Source of the DNA: an uncultured Candidatus Saccharibacteria bacterium
GTDB taxonomy: Bacteria; Patescibacteriota; CALEFQ01; G965231055
DNA length: 64,000 nucleotides
Direction of reading: 5' to 3'
Assembly (NCBI GenBank): GCA_965231055.1
Contig: OZ246411.1
Coordinates: 409,875-473,874 of the forward strand
The notes below the pieces were generated by a model. That model made no database searches. It was not told where the DNA came from and worked only from the letters and a program-made list of their open reading frames with translations. Position 1 is the first letter of the stretch. Each line of letters opens with the position of its first letter. The translations under genes were made by a program, and so were the position numbers. Below, piece after piece: positions 10,904 to 61,580 of the stretch.

Positions 10904-10910
10904 TATTTAG

Positions 10911-11010
10911 GAGAATTAGAAGTTTTAGAAGTATAGGTGTTGAAATTAACTGTGAATGTTTAGTATCATGCTAGTTCATCTAATACTTCTAGTACGTCTA
11001 GTCCTTCTAG
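10911..11010 (+). repeat. TTAGAAG/CTTCTAA iteron-like imperfect inverted repeat (family A, copy 1)
   Basis: left arm gagaaTTAGAAGtttTAGAAGtatagg, right arm ctaataCTTCTAgtacgtctagtcCTTCTAg; the same architecture recurs at 49183, 51272 and 51908. Confidence 0.7.
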
Positions 11011-11051
11011 AAAATAAATACAAAATAATATGAAAGGGGGTGACAAGAAAA

Positions 11052-20383: not shown

Positions 20384-20500
20384 GACTTTTCATAACTAAA
20401 AAGTCACCAAAAGGTTCCGGGGGTGCTCAAAAGTCGCTAGCATTAAAGTTACAAGGTTAAAGTTTTTTACAAGAGGACGCTCCGACAGTTGAGCACCCCC
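20384..20500 (+). other. structured RNA-like element in the gatA-cca intergenic region
   Basis: hairpin AGTGACTTTT cataact AAAAGTCAC (20384-20411), then a 12-bp long-range helix GGGGGTGCTCAA (20421-20432) ... TTGAGCACCCCC (20489-20500) enclosing about 56 nt. Confidence 0.4.
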
Positions 20501-20540
20501 GTACCCCCATTGATACACTAGATAATTTATTTTTTACGAC

Positions 20541-21917
20541 ATGCTAACAGGAGCGCTGAAAATTTTATCAACACTAAAAGACGCAGGTTACACTGCGTAT
20601 TTTGCTGGTGGAGCTGTGAGGGATTTTGTTTTGGGAATTGCGCCAAAAGATATTGATATTGCCACCAATGCAAGGCCAGAAGAAATAGAAAGACTTTTTA
20701 AAAATACCAAGCCAGTCGGCAAGCAATTTGGAGTTGTTTTGGTAATCGAAAAAGGAATTGCGTTTGATGTTGCGACTTTTAGAGCTGATACGAATTACAA
20801 AGATGGAAGAAGGCCAGAAAAAATAGAGTTCGTGACCCCAGAAGAAGATGCTAAGAGGCGAGATTTTACAATAAATGGATTGTTTTTGGATATTGCAGGT
20901 ATTGAGAAAGACAAGATAGACAAGATCAATTCGCTTCGCAAGCTTAAAAGAAAACTCAAGTGGAATATCATAGATTTCGTGGGCGGCTTGGAGGATATAA
21001 ACAATAAAAGAATAAGATTCATCGGAGATGCTATCTCAAGAATAAATGAAGATCATCTAAGGATATTGAGGGCAGTGAGAATAAAAAATGAACTGGGATT
21101 TGAATACGAAGAGAGTACAAAAAATGCAGTTATAAAAAATATTGAACTTGTTAAAAAACTTTCAGATGAAAGAGTGAGGGATGAAATGGTAAAAGGAATG
21201 AGGTGCGAGAATAGAAAAAACTTTATCGAAGAATTTTCTAGCTTTGGTCTACTTGGCATCATTATTCCCGAGATAGAAGAAATGAAAAACATTGAACAGG
21301 GAGGTCTTTATCATAAAGAGGGGAATGTTTTTGTTCACACTATCATGGCTCTTGATGCTATCGGCAAAAAAACAATTAGCGATATTTCTATTTGGGCTCT
21401 TTTATTTCATGATATTGGTAAAAAGGAAACTAGGAGAATTATAAAAGGAAATCCTCATTGGTATAATCACGAAGCTGTGTCTGCAAAGAGGGCCGAAAAA
21501 ATAATGAAACGACTGAAGTTTTCAAATAGATTTATAGGAGATGTTTCTTTTGTCATAGGAAATGCTATTGGGTACAATCTTGAAAAAATGAGTAAGGGAA
21601 AAAGAAGAGAGCTATTTTTCGGAAGACTTGCTGATGATATCAGGGATATGATTATTTTTGATCAAATGGGAAAAATTCCATTTGATAGAAAAAGTGTACG
21701 CATGGCTAAAAAGTATTTTAGAGAAGCGTGCAGATTCAAAAAAAGATTCTATAAAAAATTTGCCAGTTATCTAAAAGGCGCTTATATAATGCAAATAAAA
21801 AATATTATTCCAGGGCCAAAAGTGGGGGAGATTATCAAGAAGACAAGACTCGCTATTTTGGATGAAAAAATAAGTACTGAAAATGAGATAGTAAATTATA
21901 TAAAAAGCATTAACTAA
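20541..21917 (+). CDS. cca: CCA tRNA nucleotidyltransferase with C-terminal HD domain
   Basis: GGAVRDFVLGIAPKDIDIAT polymerase-beta head motif, RRDFTING, HD region. Confidence 0.9.
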   Translation: MLTGALKILSTLKDAGYTAYFAGGAVRDFVLGIAPKDIDIATNARPEEIERLFKNTKPVGKQFGVVLVIEKGIAFDVATFRADTNYKDGRRPEKIEFVTPEEDAKRRDFTINGLFLDIAGIEKDKIDKINSLRKLKRKLKWNIIDFVGGLEDINNKRIRFIGDAISRINEDHLRILRAVRIKNELGFEYEESTKNAVIKNIELVKKLSDERVRDEMVKGMRCENRKNFIEEFSSFGLLGIIIPEIEEMKNIEQGGLYHKEGNVFVHTIMALDAIGKKTISDISIWALLFHDIGKKETRRIIKGNPHWYNHEAVSAKRAEKIMKRLKFSNRFIGDVSFVIGNAIGYNLEKMSKGKRRELFFGRLADDIRDMIIFDQMGKIPFDRKSVRMAKKYFREACRFKKRFYKKFASYLKGAYIMQIKNIIPGPKVGEIIKKTRLAILDEKISTENEIVNYIKSIN

Positions 21918-22543: not shown

Positions 22544-22571
22544 AGTGTTCAGTTTTCAGTATTCAGTTACC
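22544..22571 (+). repeat. TTCAGT-rich repeat (family B) upstream of the third tRNA
   Basis: AGTGTTCAGTTTTCAGTATTCAGTTACC; related copies at 22688, 43349-43466, 43662-43717, 57061-57138. Confidence 0.6.
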
Positions 22572-22674: not shown

Positions 22675-22687
22675 CGAAAATTTCAAT

Positions 22688-22711
22688 TGTCAGTATTCAG
22701 TTTTCAGTCAC
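22688..22711 (+). repeat. TTCAGT-rich repeat (family B) downstream of the third tRNA
   Basis: TGTCAGTATTCAGTTTTCAGTCAC, direct repeat of 22544-22571. Confidence 0.6.
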
Positions 22712-23230: not shown

Positions 23231-23620
23231 ATGAGATGTTTAGGTGTTTTGCGTGACAGCATTGTCGGTTTTGTATCTGCGCTTTGCCAGGATTCTGGCG
23301 CTGAGTTTATGCCAATAAACAATCTGGAGCAGGTAAGGGTGCTCATTTTCGACAAAATGTTTTGGCAAAATACAAAGATTATCTTCATTGATCACAATAC
23401 TCTTTCAATTGATCTCACTTCTCTTAATGGATTGATTTGTGATCTGAGGAGTTTTCAAGAAGAAAAAAAACTCAGAATCAATACGAGGTTTATTGTGATC
23501 AGGAATTCTCACGATTGCAAAATTTGTTCAGGACGCAATGTGCACAATGTTATGTTGCGTTCTGCGCATTACAGAGCTGATCTTTTGAGGTTAGCGCGGC
23601 TTGTCAGTAAGCTTTGTTAG
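23231..23620 (+). CDS. pseudo-receiver (REC-like fold) small protein, paralog 2
   Basis: VRVLIFDK ... KIIFIDHN ... TRFIVIRNS pattern; SD GGGGGGTGG upstream. Confidence 0.55.
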   Translation: MRCLGVLRDSIVGFVSALCQDSGAEFMPINNLEQVRVLIFDKMFWQNTKIIFIDHNTLSIDLTSLNGLICDLRSFQEEKKLRINTRFIVIRNSHDCKICSGRNVHNVMLRSAHYRADLLRLARLVSKLC

Positions 23621-23638
23621 CTTCATCTTTGAAAAATT

Positions 23639-23670
23639 GCGGGTCAAGCCTTTGATCCGCATTTTTATTT
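23639..23670 (+). terminator. intrinsic terminator (copy 1 of a duplicated 43-nt terminator module)
   Basis: GCGGGTCAAG cc TTTGATCCGC + ATTTTTATTT; near-identical to 24220-24251. Confidence 0.75.
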
Positions 23671-23785
23671 GGTTTTAGGCACAATCCCAGAAAGGGATTG
23701 CGATTTTCTTGATTTTTTATTTTAAAGTGATATCTTAGATAGCTAAATTTATGGTGCGTTCTTTCATTTTACAACGGAGGTTTTT

Positions 23786-24199
23786 ATGAAGACAATGATT
23801 TTTTTGGTGAGACCGAAGCTTGTCGACATAGTAAAGTTCATATGTCATGAGCTGGGATGGAGCTTGTCATCGTTCTCTGATCCCGAGCAATTCTTGACAA
23901 TCGTTGGGACTAGGAAAAGTGGCTCCTCGAGACCAGATTGTCTCTTGGTAGATTGTGCCACTACAAATAACGAGAATATTGAGGAATTAATAAGGCTCGT
24001 CGGTGAATTTTGTCAACAGGGTAAATCCTATGAGAGTCCTAGATTTGCCGTGGGTTTTTGCTCTAGGGGCGGTGAAAATGTTGAACCTTGCAGGGGGTGT
24101 AGGATGATCCGGATTTTTGTGGGCAAGACCGTTACTATTGAAGACTACCTAATATTTGAACAATCCTTGCGCTGGGAATTGTCACACGCTCCGTCTTGA
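23786..24199 (+). CDS. pseudo-receiver (REC-like fold) small protein, paralog 3
   Basis: MIFLVRPK ... PDCLLVDC ... PRFAVGFCS ... IFVGK ... DYLIFEQSL: Asp/Ser/Lys positions of a receiver domain are kept but the N-terminal acidic pair is lost. Confidence 0.6.
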   Translation: MKTMIFLVRPKLVDIVKFICHELGWSLSSFSDPEQFLTIVGTRKSGSSRPDCLLVDCATTNNENIEELIRLVGEFCQQGKSYESPRFAVGFCSRGGENVEPCRGCRMIRIFVGKTVTIEDYLIFEQSLRWELSHAPS

Positions 24200-24219
24200 T
24201 CTTTATTTTTCGATTTAAT

Positions 24220-24251
24220 GCGGGTCAAACCTTTGATCCGCATTTTTATTT
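24220..24251 (+). terminator. intrinsic terminator (copy 2 of the duplicated module)
   Basis: GCGGGTCAAA cc TTTGATCCGC + ATTTTTATTT. Confidence 0.75.
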
Positions 24252-24313
24252 GGTTTAAGGCGCAAAACTCACAAATATGGTAATATATAAACATATTTAT
24301 TAGGAATAAACTC

Positions 24314-39980: not shown

Positions 39981-40009
39981 TTGCACTAGGGCAATAAAAC
40001 TGGTATACT
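39981..40009 (+). promoter_or_regulatory. strong sigma70-like promoter for gyrB (TTGCAC - 17 nt - TGgTATACT)
   Basis: TTGCAC 39981-39986; TATACT 40004-40009 with upstream TG. Confidence 0.6.
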
Positions 40010-40065
40010 TTTTGTGTGTAAAAAGGTTATTTTTGGACCCAATTCGGGTTATTTTGTTAAGTATT

Positions 40066-42169
<2,104 letters not shown>

Positions 42170-43348: not shown

Positions 43349-43466
43349 GAGTGTTCAGCAATCAGTGCTCAGTATTCATTATTAGTTTTTATTGTAATAA
43401 TGAATTAATGGGGGGCATTAAGTGAGTTATTTGGAATACTGAAAACTGATTACTGAATACTAATAA
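43349..43466 (+). repeat. TTCAGT-rich inverted repeat (family B), about 35-nt arms around a 47-nt spacer, immediately upstream of secE
   Basis: left arm GAGTGTTCAGCAATCAGTGCTCAGTATTCA; right arm GGAATACTGAAAACTGATTACTGAATACT, which is the reverse complement of the left-arm pattern. Confidence 0.65.
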
Positions 43467-43661: not shown

Positions 43662-43717
43662 CAGTGTTCAGCAGTCAGTATTCAAAACAGTAAATATACT
43701 GAAAGTTGAACACTAAA
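43662..43717 (+). repeat. TTCAGT-rich inverted repeat (family B) between secE and nusG
   Basis: CAGTGTTCAGCAGTCAGTATTCA ... ATACTGAAAGTTGAACACTAAA. Confidence 0.6.
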
Positions 43718-49080: not shown

Positions 49081-49095
49081 TTTACGTGCATAATG

Positions 49096-49118
49096 GCCGG
49101 GATTTTCTCGGCTTTTTG
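49096..49118 (+). terminator. intrinsic terminator after tmk
   Basis: GCCGGGA ttt TCTCGGC + TTTTT. Confidence 0.65.
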
Positions 49119-49133
49119 CTTTATTAAAAGACT

Positions 49134-49161
49134 TTATTTGGAATGGGGGATTTGGTATAAT
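49134..49161 (+). promoter_or_regulatory. promoter with extended -10 (TGgTATAAT) upstream of gatB
   Basis: TATAAT at 49156-49161 with TG at 49153-49154; weak -35 TTATTT. Confidence 0.5.
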
Positions 49162-49182
49162 GGACGAGTTGCGGATTAGTGG

Positions 49183-49264
49183 ACTTAGAAGCCTTAGAAG
49201 AATTAGTTAAGCACTGATGCATCTAATTTTACTAGCACCTAATACTTCTAATTCTTCTGAATCC
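49183..49264 (+). repeat. TTAGAAG/CTTCTAA iteron-like inverted repeat (family A, copy 2) in the gatB leader
   Basis: cTTAGAAGccTTAGAAGaattag ... cctaataCTTCTAAttCTTCTGAatcc. Confidence 0.7.
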
Positions 49265-49278
49265 TAACACCTCGCCTC

Positions 49279-51271: not shown

Positions 51272-51340
51272 GGATTTAGAAGAACTAGAAGTTTTAGAGA
51301 CTAGCTTCTTCTTCTAATCCTTCTAATTCTTCTAATAGCC
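51272..51340 (+). repeat. TTAGAAG/CTTCTAA iteron-like inverted repeat (family A, copy 3), near-contiguous palindrome
   Basis: ggatTTAGAAGaacTAGAAGtttTAGAGactag | CTTCTTCTTCTAAtcCTTCTAAttCTTCTAAtagcc. Confidence 0.75.
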
Positions 51341-51894: not shown

Positions 51895-51907
51895 ATTGAA
51901 TCTTAGT

Positions 51908-52003
51908 GGATTTAGAGTGATTAGGTTTTAGAGGCGTTATAGGATTGAAGAGCCGTTGTTTGTTTTCACTGGGTATTCTAATTCTTCTAATACTTCTAGT
52001 TCC
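51908..52003 (+). repeat. TTAGAAG/CTTCTAA iteron-like inverted repeat (family A, copy 4, more degenerate)
   Basis: ggatTTAGAGtgatTAGGttTTAGAGg ... CTAAttCTTCTAAtaCTTCTAgttcc. Confidence 0.65.
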
Positions 52004-52026
52004 ACTAAAATCTAATATTTAATAAA

Positions 52027-52851: not shown

Positions 52852-54170
52852 ATGTCTTCTTTGTTTAGCGCGTCTCTGGCATGCCATCTTTGCGTTATGT
52901 TGATTAAACGCTATGATATTATGTGAGCGCGCGACACCTTTTGCGGGGTGTTTTTTTGAAACCGAGAGTCAATCTCTTAGAGATTGTTTCTTCAGCACAT
53001 TGGCAGGATCCTCCTATTGCGCTTGGCGGCAGAAACCCGGGAAAACAGTGTCAGTTGTTAGTCGGTGCTCGGATAAAAATCATGGTCATTCCTCGTTTGC
53101 AGGGGGCCAAGGCGCCTCGGCGTTAACAGGCGCTGCTGGCCGACAGGTTGATCGACGACATGAACAATGTCGAAAGGGAGAACTGGGAGCAGTTAAGCAC
53201 CAACATAAAGGGGTCCCTCCTGGCTTTAGCCAAGGTGTTGATTTTGCGGTTCGTTGTGAGCCGCATTTTAATAGAACTATTCAGAATCTAATGTATTTAG
53301 ATTTTTTTGTCAAATATTCTTTTGAATTCATCGCAACAGTATTTTTTTGAATAAAAAAATCCCCGAATGCAGCTGCAGCTACTTTCGGGGGGTAAAGTTG
53401 TGGTTTCAGATTATACAAGTCAAAAAGAAAAGAGCGGGCACCTGCATCGGTAGTCGGGAGTTTTGATGTGTACCTCCCGGAATCCTAGCAGGTAGTTACC
53501 AGTACATGGGAGTATCCTCCTTTTGTTGCCATCTGATGTGGAGAGTCTTTTCTAGAGCATTTGCTCTAGTAGGGCCCTCGTTTGCGTGAGATACATCGGC
53601 GACGCGATCGTCGAATGACAGAATGCGATCCTTTTGCGTAAGCTTCTCCCGTAGAACACACAGGGTTTGGCCGGATTTTTTTGGATTCTGCTATGTTACG
53701 TCCATGTCATTCTGTCCCTCATTTCTTGGTTTTTCGAGGGTTTGGAAGAACTTTTTGCAATAGGCATTCTCCTTTCTTCGAAGTGTAAAAGAGCGAATTT
53801 AAAATGACACTACCACGTATCTATTAAATGTCAAGTATTTTGAGTGAATAATGTGGTATTTTGCTTTATTTTAGCCAAAATATAGTAATTTTGGGTAAAA
53901 GAAAACAGGGAATGTTGGATGCGTGTTTTTGGTGGCTTAGAAAGATGTCTTTGCTCGAGTGAGCTAAGTTTTTCTTGCCCATGGGGTATCCCATGAAAAC
54001 TGCATCAACATGCCCTGTTATGTGTAAAGAATAGAAGGGGACGGGTGATAATACCTTTAGCTAGGCCGATTAAAACATAAAAAAATGAAAAGGCTTTGCT
54101 ATCGGTTTTAAGGCATAGTGTCGTATCCCGTCCCCTCCTTGGTACAATGAACAGTTGGAAAACTATCACC
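52852..54170. other. about 1.3-kb ORF-free, GC-elevated island between convergent mtnP and miaA; candidate structured non-coding RNA gene(s)
   Basis: GC of sampled stretches about 50-57% versus about 35% for the flanks; no ORF of 60 aa or more in any frame from 53350 to 54178; the only long ORF (52913..53350) has non-protein-like composition; multiple hairpins and terminator-like structures on both strands. Confidence 0.6.
53341..53392 (-). terminator. intrinsic terminator for a minus-strand transcript inside the ORF-free island
   Basis: plus strand atttttttgaataaaaaaat CCCCGAA tgcagctgcagctact TTCGGGG; on the minus strand: hairpin then AUUUUUUUAUUCAAAAAAAU. Confidence 0.5.
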
Positions 54171-54177
54171 CGCTTGT

Positions 54178-57035: not shown

Positions 57036-57060
57036 GTAGGTTGAGATTGGTGATATAATA

Positions 57061-57138
57061 AGTATTCACTTATTAGTATTCAGTTTTTGCCTAGCATTTA
57101 TGAGTTAACTCTTGACTACTAATTGCTGAAAACTATTT
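57061..57138 (+). repeat. TTCAGT-rich repeat (family B) upstream of 57176
   Basis: AGTATTCACTTATTAGTATTCAGTTTTTGC ... CTAATTGCTGAAAACTATT. Confidence 0.5.
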
Positions 57139-61249: not shown

Positions 61250-61580
61250 GGTTTAAATTAAGTTATAAGTATTCGCGAATAAATAAAAAATTCTCGCTCC
61301 AAAGTTAAACTTTTTTAACATTGGAACGAGAATTCTATCTCGCGGTTCCATCCAATTTCTCACCACTCTGAGATTTAGTGATAAGCTTCTTTATTTATTG
61401 CAATTGCTCCGCGGGTGGTATGAAATAGGGGATTGTCGCAAAAGCTTTCAGTCTCGGCTCTTGCTCCCTTTGACAATTCATCCTTGTTTCACTTGTCCCA
61501 CTGACACGTTGTTAGCTTAGCATAATGCTAAAAGTTTTTCAATACAGTATTTGGTAATTAAAAAAGAAATAGAAGAATAC
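61250..61580 (-). promoter_or_regulatory. T-box-like riboswitch leader of thrS (T-box motif plus terminator/antiterminator)
   Basis: on the minus strand: AAATTGGATGGAACCGCGAG (plus 61339-61357) matches the T-box consensus AAUUAGGGUGGNACCGCGG with a UGGA bulge; mutually exclusive antiterminator (GGAAC/GTTCC + CGAGA/TCTCG) and a 19-bp terminator hairpin (plus 61289-61334) followed by UUUUUUAUUU about 30 nt before the thrS ATG; candidate Thr specifier ACC in cauACCAcc. Confidence 0.65.

Follow-up and report, generated by a model that had tools for sequence, protein, structure and literature searches.

Convergent pairs of short tandem repeats are known from Xanthomonas, where each genome carries 70 to 75 inverted pairs of GGGAATC heptamer arrays, mostly intergenic, transcribed, and of unknown function (Rehm et al. 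2015, PMC4692102). The two arrays of a pair are always convergent and capable of forming a stem-loop, and species agree in the position of an element and in its type, whether a single array or an inverted pair, but not in its length and sequence (PMC4692102). Here, we analyse a comparable set of elements, family A, in a 64,000-nt stretch (hereafter, the window) of contig OZ246411.1 from an uncultured Candidatus Saccharibacteria bacterium. Four intergenic spacers of the window hold hairpins whose arms are tandem copies of TTAGAAG plus 2 nt and of the complement, and these hairpins form a real family. They resemble the Xanthomonas pairs in their short tandem units, in the presence of two convergent arrays with the purine-rich arm first, and in forming stem-loops; they are likewise intergenic, and their spacers are kept between relatives while the units change. 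Unlike the Xanthomonas unit, however, the family A unit is 9 nt long, A/T-rich, and free of G runs, and the host is a member of the Patescibacteria with a small genome. A further difference is that the window elements lie close against start codons without a Shine-Dalgarno sequence and that several unit families coexist in one genome. Since the A/T-rich family A unit cannot form a G-quadruplex, an explanation based on such structures cannot be general.

A second type of array, known from Beggiatoaceae, Cyanobacteria, and Bacteroidetes, consists of 2 to 6 tandem TAACTGA units located within a few nt upstream of starts that have no Shine-Dalgarno sequence (MacGregor 2015, PMC4679880). The downstream genes have no functional theme and include ribosomal and essential genes, and S1, cold-shock proteins (Csp), or CsrA have been proposed as binders (PMC4679880). 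In the BOGUAY genome, there are 169 direct TAACTGA sets and only one inverted repeat (PMC4679880). A study of Nostoc recF and recO also found heptamer arrays near starts, and array deletion altered reporter expression (bioRxiv 10.1101/2022.06.06.494920); inverted heptamer-array pairs in Nostoc are reported to be few (PMC4692102). Among the window elements, which comprise the family A copies A1 to A4 and hairpins of 2 sibling families (B1, B2, and C1; Table 1), A2 to A4, B1, B2, and C1 are start-proximal without a Shine-Dalgarno sequence, as the TAACTGA arrays are, but A1 is not. They differ from those arrays in that the family A unit is CTTCTAA with a period of 9, in that almost every array here is mirrored, and in that only the family B unit comes close to TAACTGA.

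Cyanobacterial STRR sequences, reportedly described by Mazel in 1990 and Vioque in 1997, are short tandem units dispersed in intergenic regions, and in RNase P RNA they lengthen one of the helices. Together with the cyanobacterial heptamer arrays, they share with the window elements short tandem intergenic units near promoters and starts, but the cyanobacterial arrays are mostly one-armed heptamers and come from another phylum. REP and REPIN elements are also short, intergenic, hairpin-forming inverted pairs that are uniform within a genome, differ between genomes, and reside for long at fixed spacers; the work of Bertels and Rainey reportedly found that REPINs persist at fixed intergenic sites, and REP hairpins can stabilise upstream mRNA. 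However, a REP arm is an imperfect palindrome of 20 to 40 nt with a conserved GTAG end, while the arms of family A are tandem arrays without an internal palindrome.

Four mirrored nonamer hairpins between co-directional genes

Each family A element has a 5' arm built from TTAGAAG plus 2 nt, a loop of 14 to 62 nt, and a 3' arm built from CTTCTAA plus 2 nt; we write the 9-nt unit as TTAGAAGNN and its counterpart as CTTCTAANN. The four copies, first noticed in a preliminary description of the window, lie at about the positions given there and share one architecture, with the mirrored CTTCTAA arms at matching spacing seen at all four sites. That description put the repeat spacing at 9 to 10 nt; the repeats are indeed periodic, but Tandem Repeats Finder (TRF) returns a period of exactly 9 for all eight arms, with 2.9 to 5.3 copies each. 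According to an inverted-repeat finder, the arms are 23 to 30 nt long with a complementarity of 73% to 87%. The unit cores are conserved, and the 2-nt spacers between them are variable and often mispaired. The left arm of A4 is degenerate, with TTAGAGT, TTAGGTT, and TAGAGG in place of the regular unit. The RNAs of A1, A2, A3, and A4 fold with energies of -32.5, -21.4, -22.9, and -27.7 kcal/mol, and the z-scores against dinucleotide shuffles range from -4.5 to -1.8, in line with the long hairpins predicted earlier. The observation that all copies are on the plus strand is true as well, but carries no information, because the palindrome reads TTAGAAG...CTTCTAA on both strands.

The question of enrichment has a divided answer. 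As a bare word, TTAGAAG is not enriched in the window (14 matches versus 16.7 expected), although 10 of these 14 matches fall inside the four family A sites. The arrangement, by contrast, is enriched: a strict rule demanding at least 2 TAGAAG (at most 1 mismatch) at 8- to 10-nt spacing, followed by at least 2 CTTCTA within 110 nt, is satisfied at 3 window sites (A1 to A3); 200 dinucleotide shuffles gave 0.085 such sites on average and never more than 1. A4, with its degenerate left arm, falls outside the rule. Outside the heptamers, A2 to A4 have a basal stem in common (TTAGTGGAY...TCCACTAA), and the copies are therefore mutually related beyond a likeness of composition, which bears out the proposal of a dispersed intergenic family. 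The 7.2 kb added beyond the window contained no further family A copy.

Regarding gene context, Pfam matches confirm pilC, pilin, and prepilin peptidase and assign tmk, gatB, yjbQ, apt, and PNP_UDP_1 among the neighbours, in agreement with the genes and the co-directional arrangement described before. A -10 element that had been noted at 49156-49161 is real and forms part of an extended -10, TGGTATAAT, a perfect match upstream of A2. Because A2 follows both a terminator-like hairpin and this extended -10, it would be located at the 5' end of the gatB transcript, so that the earlier idea of a leader hairpin holds at least for this copy, which sits downstream of a good predicted promoter. A3 and A4 are intercistronic. 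Both A2 and C1 have an extended -10 element 15 to 50 nt upstream, and another immediately precedes a set of family B-type units at 57 kb. Transcription of the elements is presumed here, with the promoters predicted from their consensus.

The elements have a characteristic position relative to start codons. The 3' ends of A2, A3, A4, B1, B2, and C1 are located 10 to 22 nt before the start codon, in no case with a Shine-Dalgarno sequence, and the gap between hairpin and AUG is G-poor and unpaired. The distance from the upstream stop is variable (3 to 462 nt) for these same six. As a consequence of this geometry, the hairpin base brings the preceding stop codon, or the transcript 5' end, beside the next start codon. 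Five of the spacers are roomy (150 to 530 nt), namely those of A2, B1, and C1 and those before gatB and secE in a relative (L120 and L127, respectively; see below), and in all of them the hairpin is placed against the start codon and never against the upstream gene. The exception is A1, which ends 41 nt before the ATG and is the sole copy with a Shine-Dalgarno sequence (AAAGGGGG) after it. Such sequences are rare in the window, with clear GGAGG-like ones only at 11040/11052 (pilin), 23231, 23786, and 30019.

The genes at 23231-23620 and 23786-24199 are small and adjacent, and each is followed by a near-identical segment of approximately 45 nt, TGCGGGTCAARCCTTTGATCCGCATTTTTATTTGGTTTWAGGCRCAA, consisting of a terminator and its tail (23637-23690 and 24216-24265). 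Given these segments and the strong Shine-Dalgarno sequence of both genes, a gene together with its terminator seems to have been duplicated in tandem.

Sibling hairpins in the window, in relatives, and in other phyla

Family A is accompanied in the window by family B, with units TCAGTNT and ANACTGA, and family C, with units TTAAGCA and TGCTTAN; both have heptamer units and likewise lack G runs (Table 1). The 3' arm of family B ("forward" WWACTGA) nearly equals the TAACTGA heptamer, here in a genome of the Candidate Phyla Radiation (CPR). A periodic-arm hairpin detector returns 5 window loci, compared to 0.09 (maximum 1) in 100 shuffles, and arrays are present in 9 of the 31 window intergenic spacers of at least 40 nt. 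All four pairs of arrays that are at most 2.2 kb apart share their unit (A2-A3, A3-A4, B1-B2, and the two arrays adjoining tRNA genes). In addition, every 5' arm in the window has TNAG (TTAG, TCAG, or TAAG) and every 3' arm CTNA.

For comparison, we collected 80 metagenome loci with a GatB relative (47% to 54% identity, approximately 1 Mb); homologues of the window GatB carried the names Patescibacteria, Moranbacteria, Falkowbacteria, and others. These loci contain many hairpins with arms of tandem heptamers, up to 13 units per arm, in which the unit varies by genome. Most of them nearly fill the spacer between two co-directional genes, and in the relatives, those before gatB, secE, and nusG end 1 to 6 nt before the start. 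In the window and relatives together (approximately 1.1 Mb), adjacent TRF arrays with matching units form 15 inverted pairs and a single direct one. A variant unit in one arm often has its mirror image in the other, as in L092 (5190-5320), which fits either arm-to-arm copying or selection for pairing. With gathering thresholds, Rfam matches neither the window nor 7 hairpin-bearing loci, and around A2 to A4 it gives only chance-level matches at E <= 1.

A cross-phylum scan of one genome per species, with the pattern TAGAAG-N3-TAGAAG...TTCTA-N3-CTTCT, gave 38 matches; in about half of these, additional units and spacers that match make it clear that the architecture is the same. The window's own genome was not recovered, and since the pattern fixed both TAGAAG and a period of 9, the scan says nothing on whether the TAGAAG core is special. 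The taxa include Saprospiraceae, Chitinophagaceae, Prevotella, Bacteroidaceae, Spirosoma, Raineyaceae, Uhrbacteria, Elusimicrobia, and one Thermoproteaceae archaeon, and 23 of the 24 matches checked fall between called open reading frames (ORFs). The nonamer unit GGTTTAGAA occurs in Saprospiraceae and Chitinophagaceae (L003, L013, L026, L032, and L034) and the unit GTTCTAGAA in Prevotella and Bacteroidaceae (L014, L019, L021, L024, and L028); as the same nonamer is found across several species, units are conserved at about the family level in Bacteroidota. The Saprospiraceae hairpins of L003 and L026 are not at corresponding positions. The suggestion that the element is genome-specific therefore applies to the unit sequence only, and not to the architecture, which is widespread and was already described in Xanthomonas (PMC4692102).

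The nearest relative found consists of two loci from one sample, L120 and L127, with a GatB that is 75% identical to that of the window. All four comparable spacers (gatB, apt, secE, and nusG) contain periodic hairpins in the relative, but with units other than those in the window (Table 1). These hairpins end 4 to 8 nt before the start, their arms all contain TAGG and CCTA, and the one before gatB follows an extended -10, TGATATACT, as A2 does in the window. The flanks of A3 can still be aligned with the relative's unit (GTAGGTTTTA versus GTAGGTTGTA), and the degenerate A4 holds TTAGGTT-type units; the hairpins are therefore long resident, and their units have been replaced. Moreover, the grouping into families re-sorts: the apt and secE hairpins share TAGGTTG in the relative, but belong to families A and B in the window. 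Either sequence passes between loci, therefore, or all loci follow a common factor encoded elsewhere. Another palindromic element, GTCATTCTGAC...CGCTGCGCTCAGGGTGAC, with variants ...GCTCAGGATGACA, recurs in several CPR contigs (L120 3285-3375, and upstream of gatB in L103 and L115), and in L120 this element fills the apt-mtnP spacer, where the window has A4.

A second comparison involves L059 and L081, in which gatB is 80% identical overall and 62% identical at third codon positions. Their pre-gatB periodic hairpin (L059 2989-3131 and L081 1926-2061) is 95.6% identical over 135 nt without an indel, making it the most conserved stretch of the locus, and the unique loop sequence is fully conserved. 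By contrast, 2 of the 3 periodic hairpins of L059 are absent from L081, and many copies must therefore be dispensable. The class thus includes strongly constrained as well as dispensable copies.

Three other features of the window were noted. At 61319-61513 (minus strand), in the 331-nt leader of threonyl-tRNA synthetase, there is a sub-threshold match to the T-box leader (40.6 bits versus a gathering threshold of 93, E = 1e-7), which may be a divergent CPR T-box. A stretch of 827 nt (53351-54177) has no ORF of at least 80 aa and contains G+C-rich patches; it starts with a terminator-like palindrome (53361-53390), and contains no tRNA or tmRNA according to ARAGORN and only chance-level matches in Rfam. 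Finally, a G+C-rich inverted repeat at 20413-20506, with 24-nt arms that are 83% complementary and 46 nt apart, lies in a 182-nt spacer before the gene at 20541 and is unlike the A/T-rich periodic hairpins.

Table 1. Periodic arrays, hairpins, and associated promoter and terminator features in the window, and hairpins in the corresponding spacers of the nearest relative (L120 and L127).
Feature	Coordinates	Strand	Arms, units, and period	Context	Fold z
A1 (family A)	10906-11012	+	arms 10908-10934 / 10983-11009; 48-nt loop	between pilC (stop 10903) and pilin gene (GTG 11040 / ATG 11052)	-4.46
A2 (family A)	49176-49268	+	arms 49181-49206 / 49239-49264	5' leader of gatB (ATG 49279), tmk upstream	-3.22
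A3 (family A)	51273-51339	+	arms 51276-51298 / 51313-51335; 14-nt loop; 87% complementary	between yjbQ (stop 51263) and apt (ATG 51349)	-2.60
A4 (family A)	51895-52016	+	30-nt arms 51895-51924 / 51987-52016; 73% complementary	between apt (stop 51894) and PNP_UDP_1 gene (ATG 52027)	-1.77
Terminator-like hairpin with T run	49095-49113	+		precedes extended -10 of A2	
Extended -10 TGGTATAAT	49153-49161	+		upstream of A2; read from sequence	
B1 (family B)	43350-43461	+	5' TCAGNNN x3, 3' WWACTGA x3; period 7	before secE (ATG 43471)	-6.05
B2 (family B)	43663-43714	+		between secE and nusG (ATG 43734)	-6.99
C1 (family C)	40058-40116	+	TTAAGCA x4 / GCTTANN x4; period 7	before gyrB (ATG 40127), ends 10 nt from start	-4.62
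Extended -10 TGGTATACT	40001-40009	+		upstream of C1	
Family B direct array	22545-22569	+	no mirror arm	directly after tRNA-Asp	
Family B direct array	22687-22709	+	no mirror arm	directly after second tRNA-Met	
Extended -10 TGATATAAT	57051-57059	+		directly before family B-type units	
Family B-type units	57060-57089	+	AGTATTCA...AGTATTCAGTTTT	leader of gene starting 57176	
Relative, gatB hairpin			unit TTAGGNG; period 7	before gatB, after TGATATACT	-4.0
Relative, apt hairpin			unit TAGGTTR; period 7	before apt	-3.0
Relative, secE hairpin			unit AGGTTNT / YAACCTA; period 7	before secE	-7.1
Relative, nusG hairpin			unit CTAGGCTG / CAGCCTAA; period 8	before nusG	-4.4

Candidate functions and competing explanations

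Family A is best explained as the local 9-nt version of mirror-repeat intergenic hairpins, i.e., of two convergent arrays with units of 7 to 9 nt. As to function, we tentatively favour, with somewhat less than even confidence, a role for family A as transcribed leader or intercistronic hairpins that would act in cis on the mRNA. The hairpin would be a self-contained fold that prevents long-range pairing of the G-poor stretch preceding an AUG that has no Shine-Dalgarno sequence, and it could also shield the cistron boundary or the transcript 5' end against decay. In addition, a ribosome that terminates at the base of the hairpin may open the region for the next cistron. With regard to their history, the hairpins would be inherited vertically at fixed spacers, and their arms would be rebuilt quickly via replication slippage of the unit, with one arm copied onto the other via intrastrand template switching and neighbouring hairpins converting each other. 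Slippage, inter-arm copying, and conversion would together give each genome and neighbourhood its own unit. We infer both the effects on translation and stability and the mechanism of unit turnover from the arrangement and comparison of the sequences.

Several observations weigh against a role in the mRNA. Start codons are outside the hairpins, and masking is not evident. The loop of A1 contains a promoter-like TTGAAA-18-TATCAT (10940-10969), and if this promoter is used, the pilin transcript would have the 3' arm only. One-armed arrays of family B adjoin tRNA genes, a setting in which translation has no role. Among 28 hairpins for which the gene orientation is known, the sense RNA has the better fold energy in 14 and the antisense RNA in 14 (Wilcoxon p = 0.71); a G-U signature that would betray selection on the RNA of one strand is thus absent. 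Such symmetry is expected of a pure DNA palindrome and speaks for a process at the level of DNA by which the arms stay complementary. The dispensable hairpins of L059 also belong here, as does the fact that family A is known here from four copies in the window plus the adjoining 7.2 kb, i.e., from a total of 71 kb read. As for the purine-rich arm, it comes first in 22 of the 28 hairpins, an asymmetry that is independent of strand; the arm beside the downstream gene is therefore pyrimidine-rich and G-poor, whichever strand is transcribed.

An alternative that we consider possible but unlikely is that the elements are mobile, non-autonomous DNA resembling MITEs (miniature inverted-repeat transposable elements) or REPINs. 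Their mirrored ends would be recognised by a transposase or RAYT-type nuclease encoded elsewhere, which would place copies of the hairpin in spacers that lack one or in hairpins already present, with any effect on the RNA being secondary. Mobility would account for the recurrence of unit and basal stem at several loci of one genome, for units that are uniform within a genome and differ at orthologous sites, and for the re-sorting of loci between families; A3, moreover, seems nested in the remnants of an older unit type. There are also presence/absence copies, among them L059 2184-2315. In L081, the stop and start at this place overlap (ATGA), whereas in L059 they are parted by a clean insertion of 121 nt with a TAAATTT direct repeat at its edges, of which L081 has a single copy. 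However, TAAATTT is itself one unit of the array and includes the palindrome AAATTT, so that in-place growth from a seed explains this insertion equally well. At A1 to A4, B1, B2, and C1, there is no target-site duplication or flanking direct repeat, and unlike typical MITE copies, the elements have loops of 14 to 62 nt that cannot be aligned with one another, and they vary in their number of units. No such hairpin turned up in viral contigs, where the scan pattern gave 4 chance-like matches, none of them periodic. Finally, all four spacers compared with the nearest relative are occupied in both genomes, and independent insertion would need a very strong target preference.

We regard it as unlikely, too, that the units are sites for a sequence-specific protein, either for an RNA-binding factor (S1, a cold-shock protein, or a TRAP/HutP-type ring reading NAG triplets) that would load on one arm, the other arm being an anti-array that hides it, or for a DNA-binding regulator that would read both arms around a promoter. 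The conserved cores with their varying, mispaired 2-nt spacers are what a binding site might look like, and the recurrence of TNAG and CTNA in all window arms, and of TAGG and CCTA in all of the relative's arms, is consistent with a recognised core. The three WWACTGA units of family B before an ATG match the TAACTGA arrays, which have been proposed to be bound by a post-transcriptional factor (PMC4679880). Between L059 and L081, the conservation of the hairpin (96%) extends to sequence and not to structure alone, promoter-like hexamers occur in the loops of A1 and B1, and the preference for a purine-rich first arm can be read in the same way. On the other hand, three unrelated units with periods of 7 and 9 in a 64-kb window, and five more in the relative, would require many binders or a very loose one, and the genes served (pilin, gatB, apt, nucleoside phosphorylase, secE, nusG, gyrB, and tRNAs) have no common theme. 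For a DNA-binding regulator, the loops of A3, B2, and C1 (5 to 14 nt) are too short for a promoter, and a period of 9 or 7 bp does not align sites on one face of the DNA.

Quite improbable, in our view, is a neutral origin without any function, in which slippage-prone repeats of 7 to 9 nt expand in the few tolerant spacers and only self-complementary forms persist, their folding rendering them harmless. Many bacteria have an excess of heptamer repeats, which has been ascribed to polymerase slippage, as far as the account of Mrazek 2007 in later papers goes (PMC4679880, PMC4692102). A neutral process is also in keeping with the lack of strand asymmetry in fold energy, with presence/absence between relatives that are 80% identical in DNA, and with the composition of the units, which tracks the genome (A/T-rich here, G-rich in Xanthomonas); in L059, the unit even resembles local flanking sequence. 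It sits badly, however, with a pre-gatB hairpin whose identity so far exceeds that of third codon positions, with the occupation of all four orthologous spacers in both genomes after approximately 25% protein divergence, with placement consistently against the start codon even in spacers of 150 to 530 nt, and with the recurrence of one unit at separate loci.

Two further candidates can be ruled out. The stems are A-U-rich, no T run follows any copy, and a scan for terminators has no entry at the four sites, although it does detect canonical ones in other parts of the window (e.g., at 49095-49113), excluding intrinsic terminators. Iteron-type sites at helical spacing, as suggested in the preliminary description, resemble the window elements in that a short motif is directly repeated and can occur in either orientation, but iterons are typically 17 to 22 bp long, phased at approximately 11 or 22 bp, and located beside a rep gene and an AT-rich unwinding element, whereas the units here are 7 to 9 bp with periods of 7 to 9 and are dispersed between housekeeping genes. 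An iteron or helix-phased operator array is excluded by the period (9 in family A, 7 in the sibling families, and 7 and 8 in orthologous hairpins, not 10.5 bp), by unit size, and by context, since the neighbours (pilC/pilin, tmk/gatB, yjbQ/apt, and apt/PNP_UDP_1) include no replication gene, origin, or dedicated regulator gene.

Wider significance

Mirrored short-repeat arrays have already been described, and family A differs from them in its 9-nt unit, its A/T-rich composition, the host lineage, and the near-universal mirror arm. What may be new is the occupancy of the same spacers with turnover of the unit, the re-sorting of loci between families, and 96% conservation over a distance at which synonymous sites are saturated. 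A bolder extension of the cis-acting hairpin would be a lineage-wide system for translation initiation without a Shine-Dalgarno sequence and for cistron coupling, at work in Patescibacteria and perhaps also in other groups with little use of that sequence, such as Bacteroidota and Cyanobacteria. The next start would then receive a terminating ribosome or a 5' end from the hairpin base, and the pyrimidine-rich 3' arm would be the landing array of a factor encoded elsewhere, for example S1 or a protein like it, that co-evolves with the units. Such co-evolution of factor specificity would explain why all hairpins of a genome change their unit together, but we hold this extension to be decidedly improbable.

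At a practical level, mirror-repeat hairpins can serve as markers in CPR metagenomes, where they also cause assemblies to break. If the hairpins are selfish or mutational in origin, they would be palindromic microsatellites that are fixed in site and co-change in sequence genome-wide, which bears on the origins of REPIN-like elements. Knowledge of how Patescibacteria regulate their genes is scant. Functional hairpins, if that is what these are, would represent a common, simple, and easily recognised mRNA element in a major part of bacterial diversity, and the reports from Xanthomonas, Beggiatoaceae, and cyanobacteria would be joined as one phenomenon.

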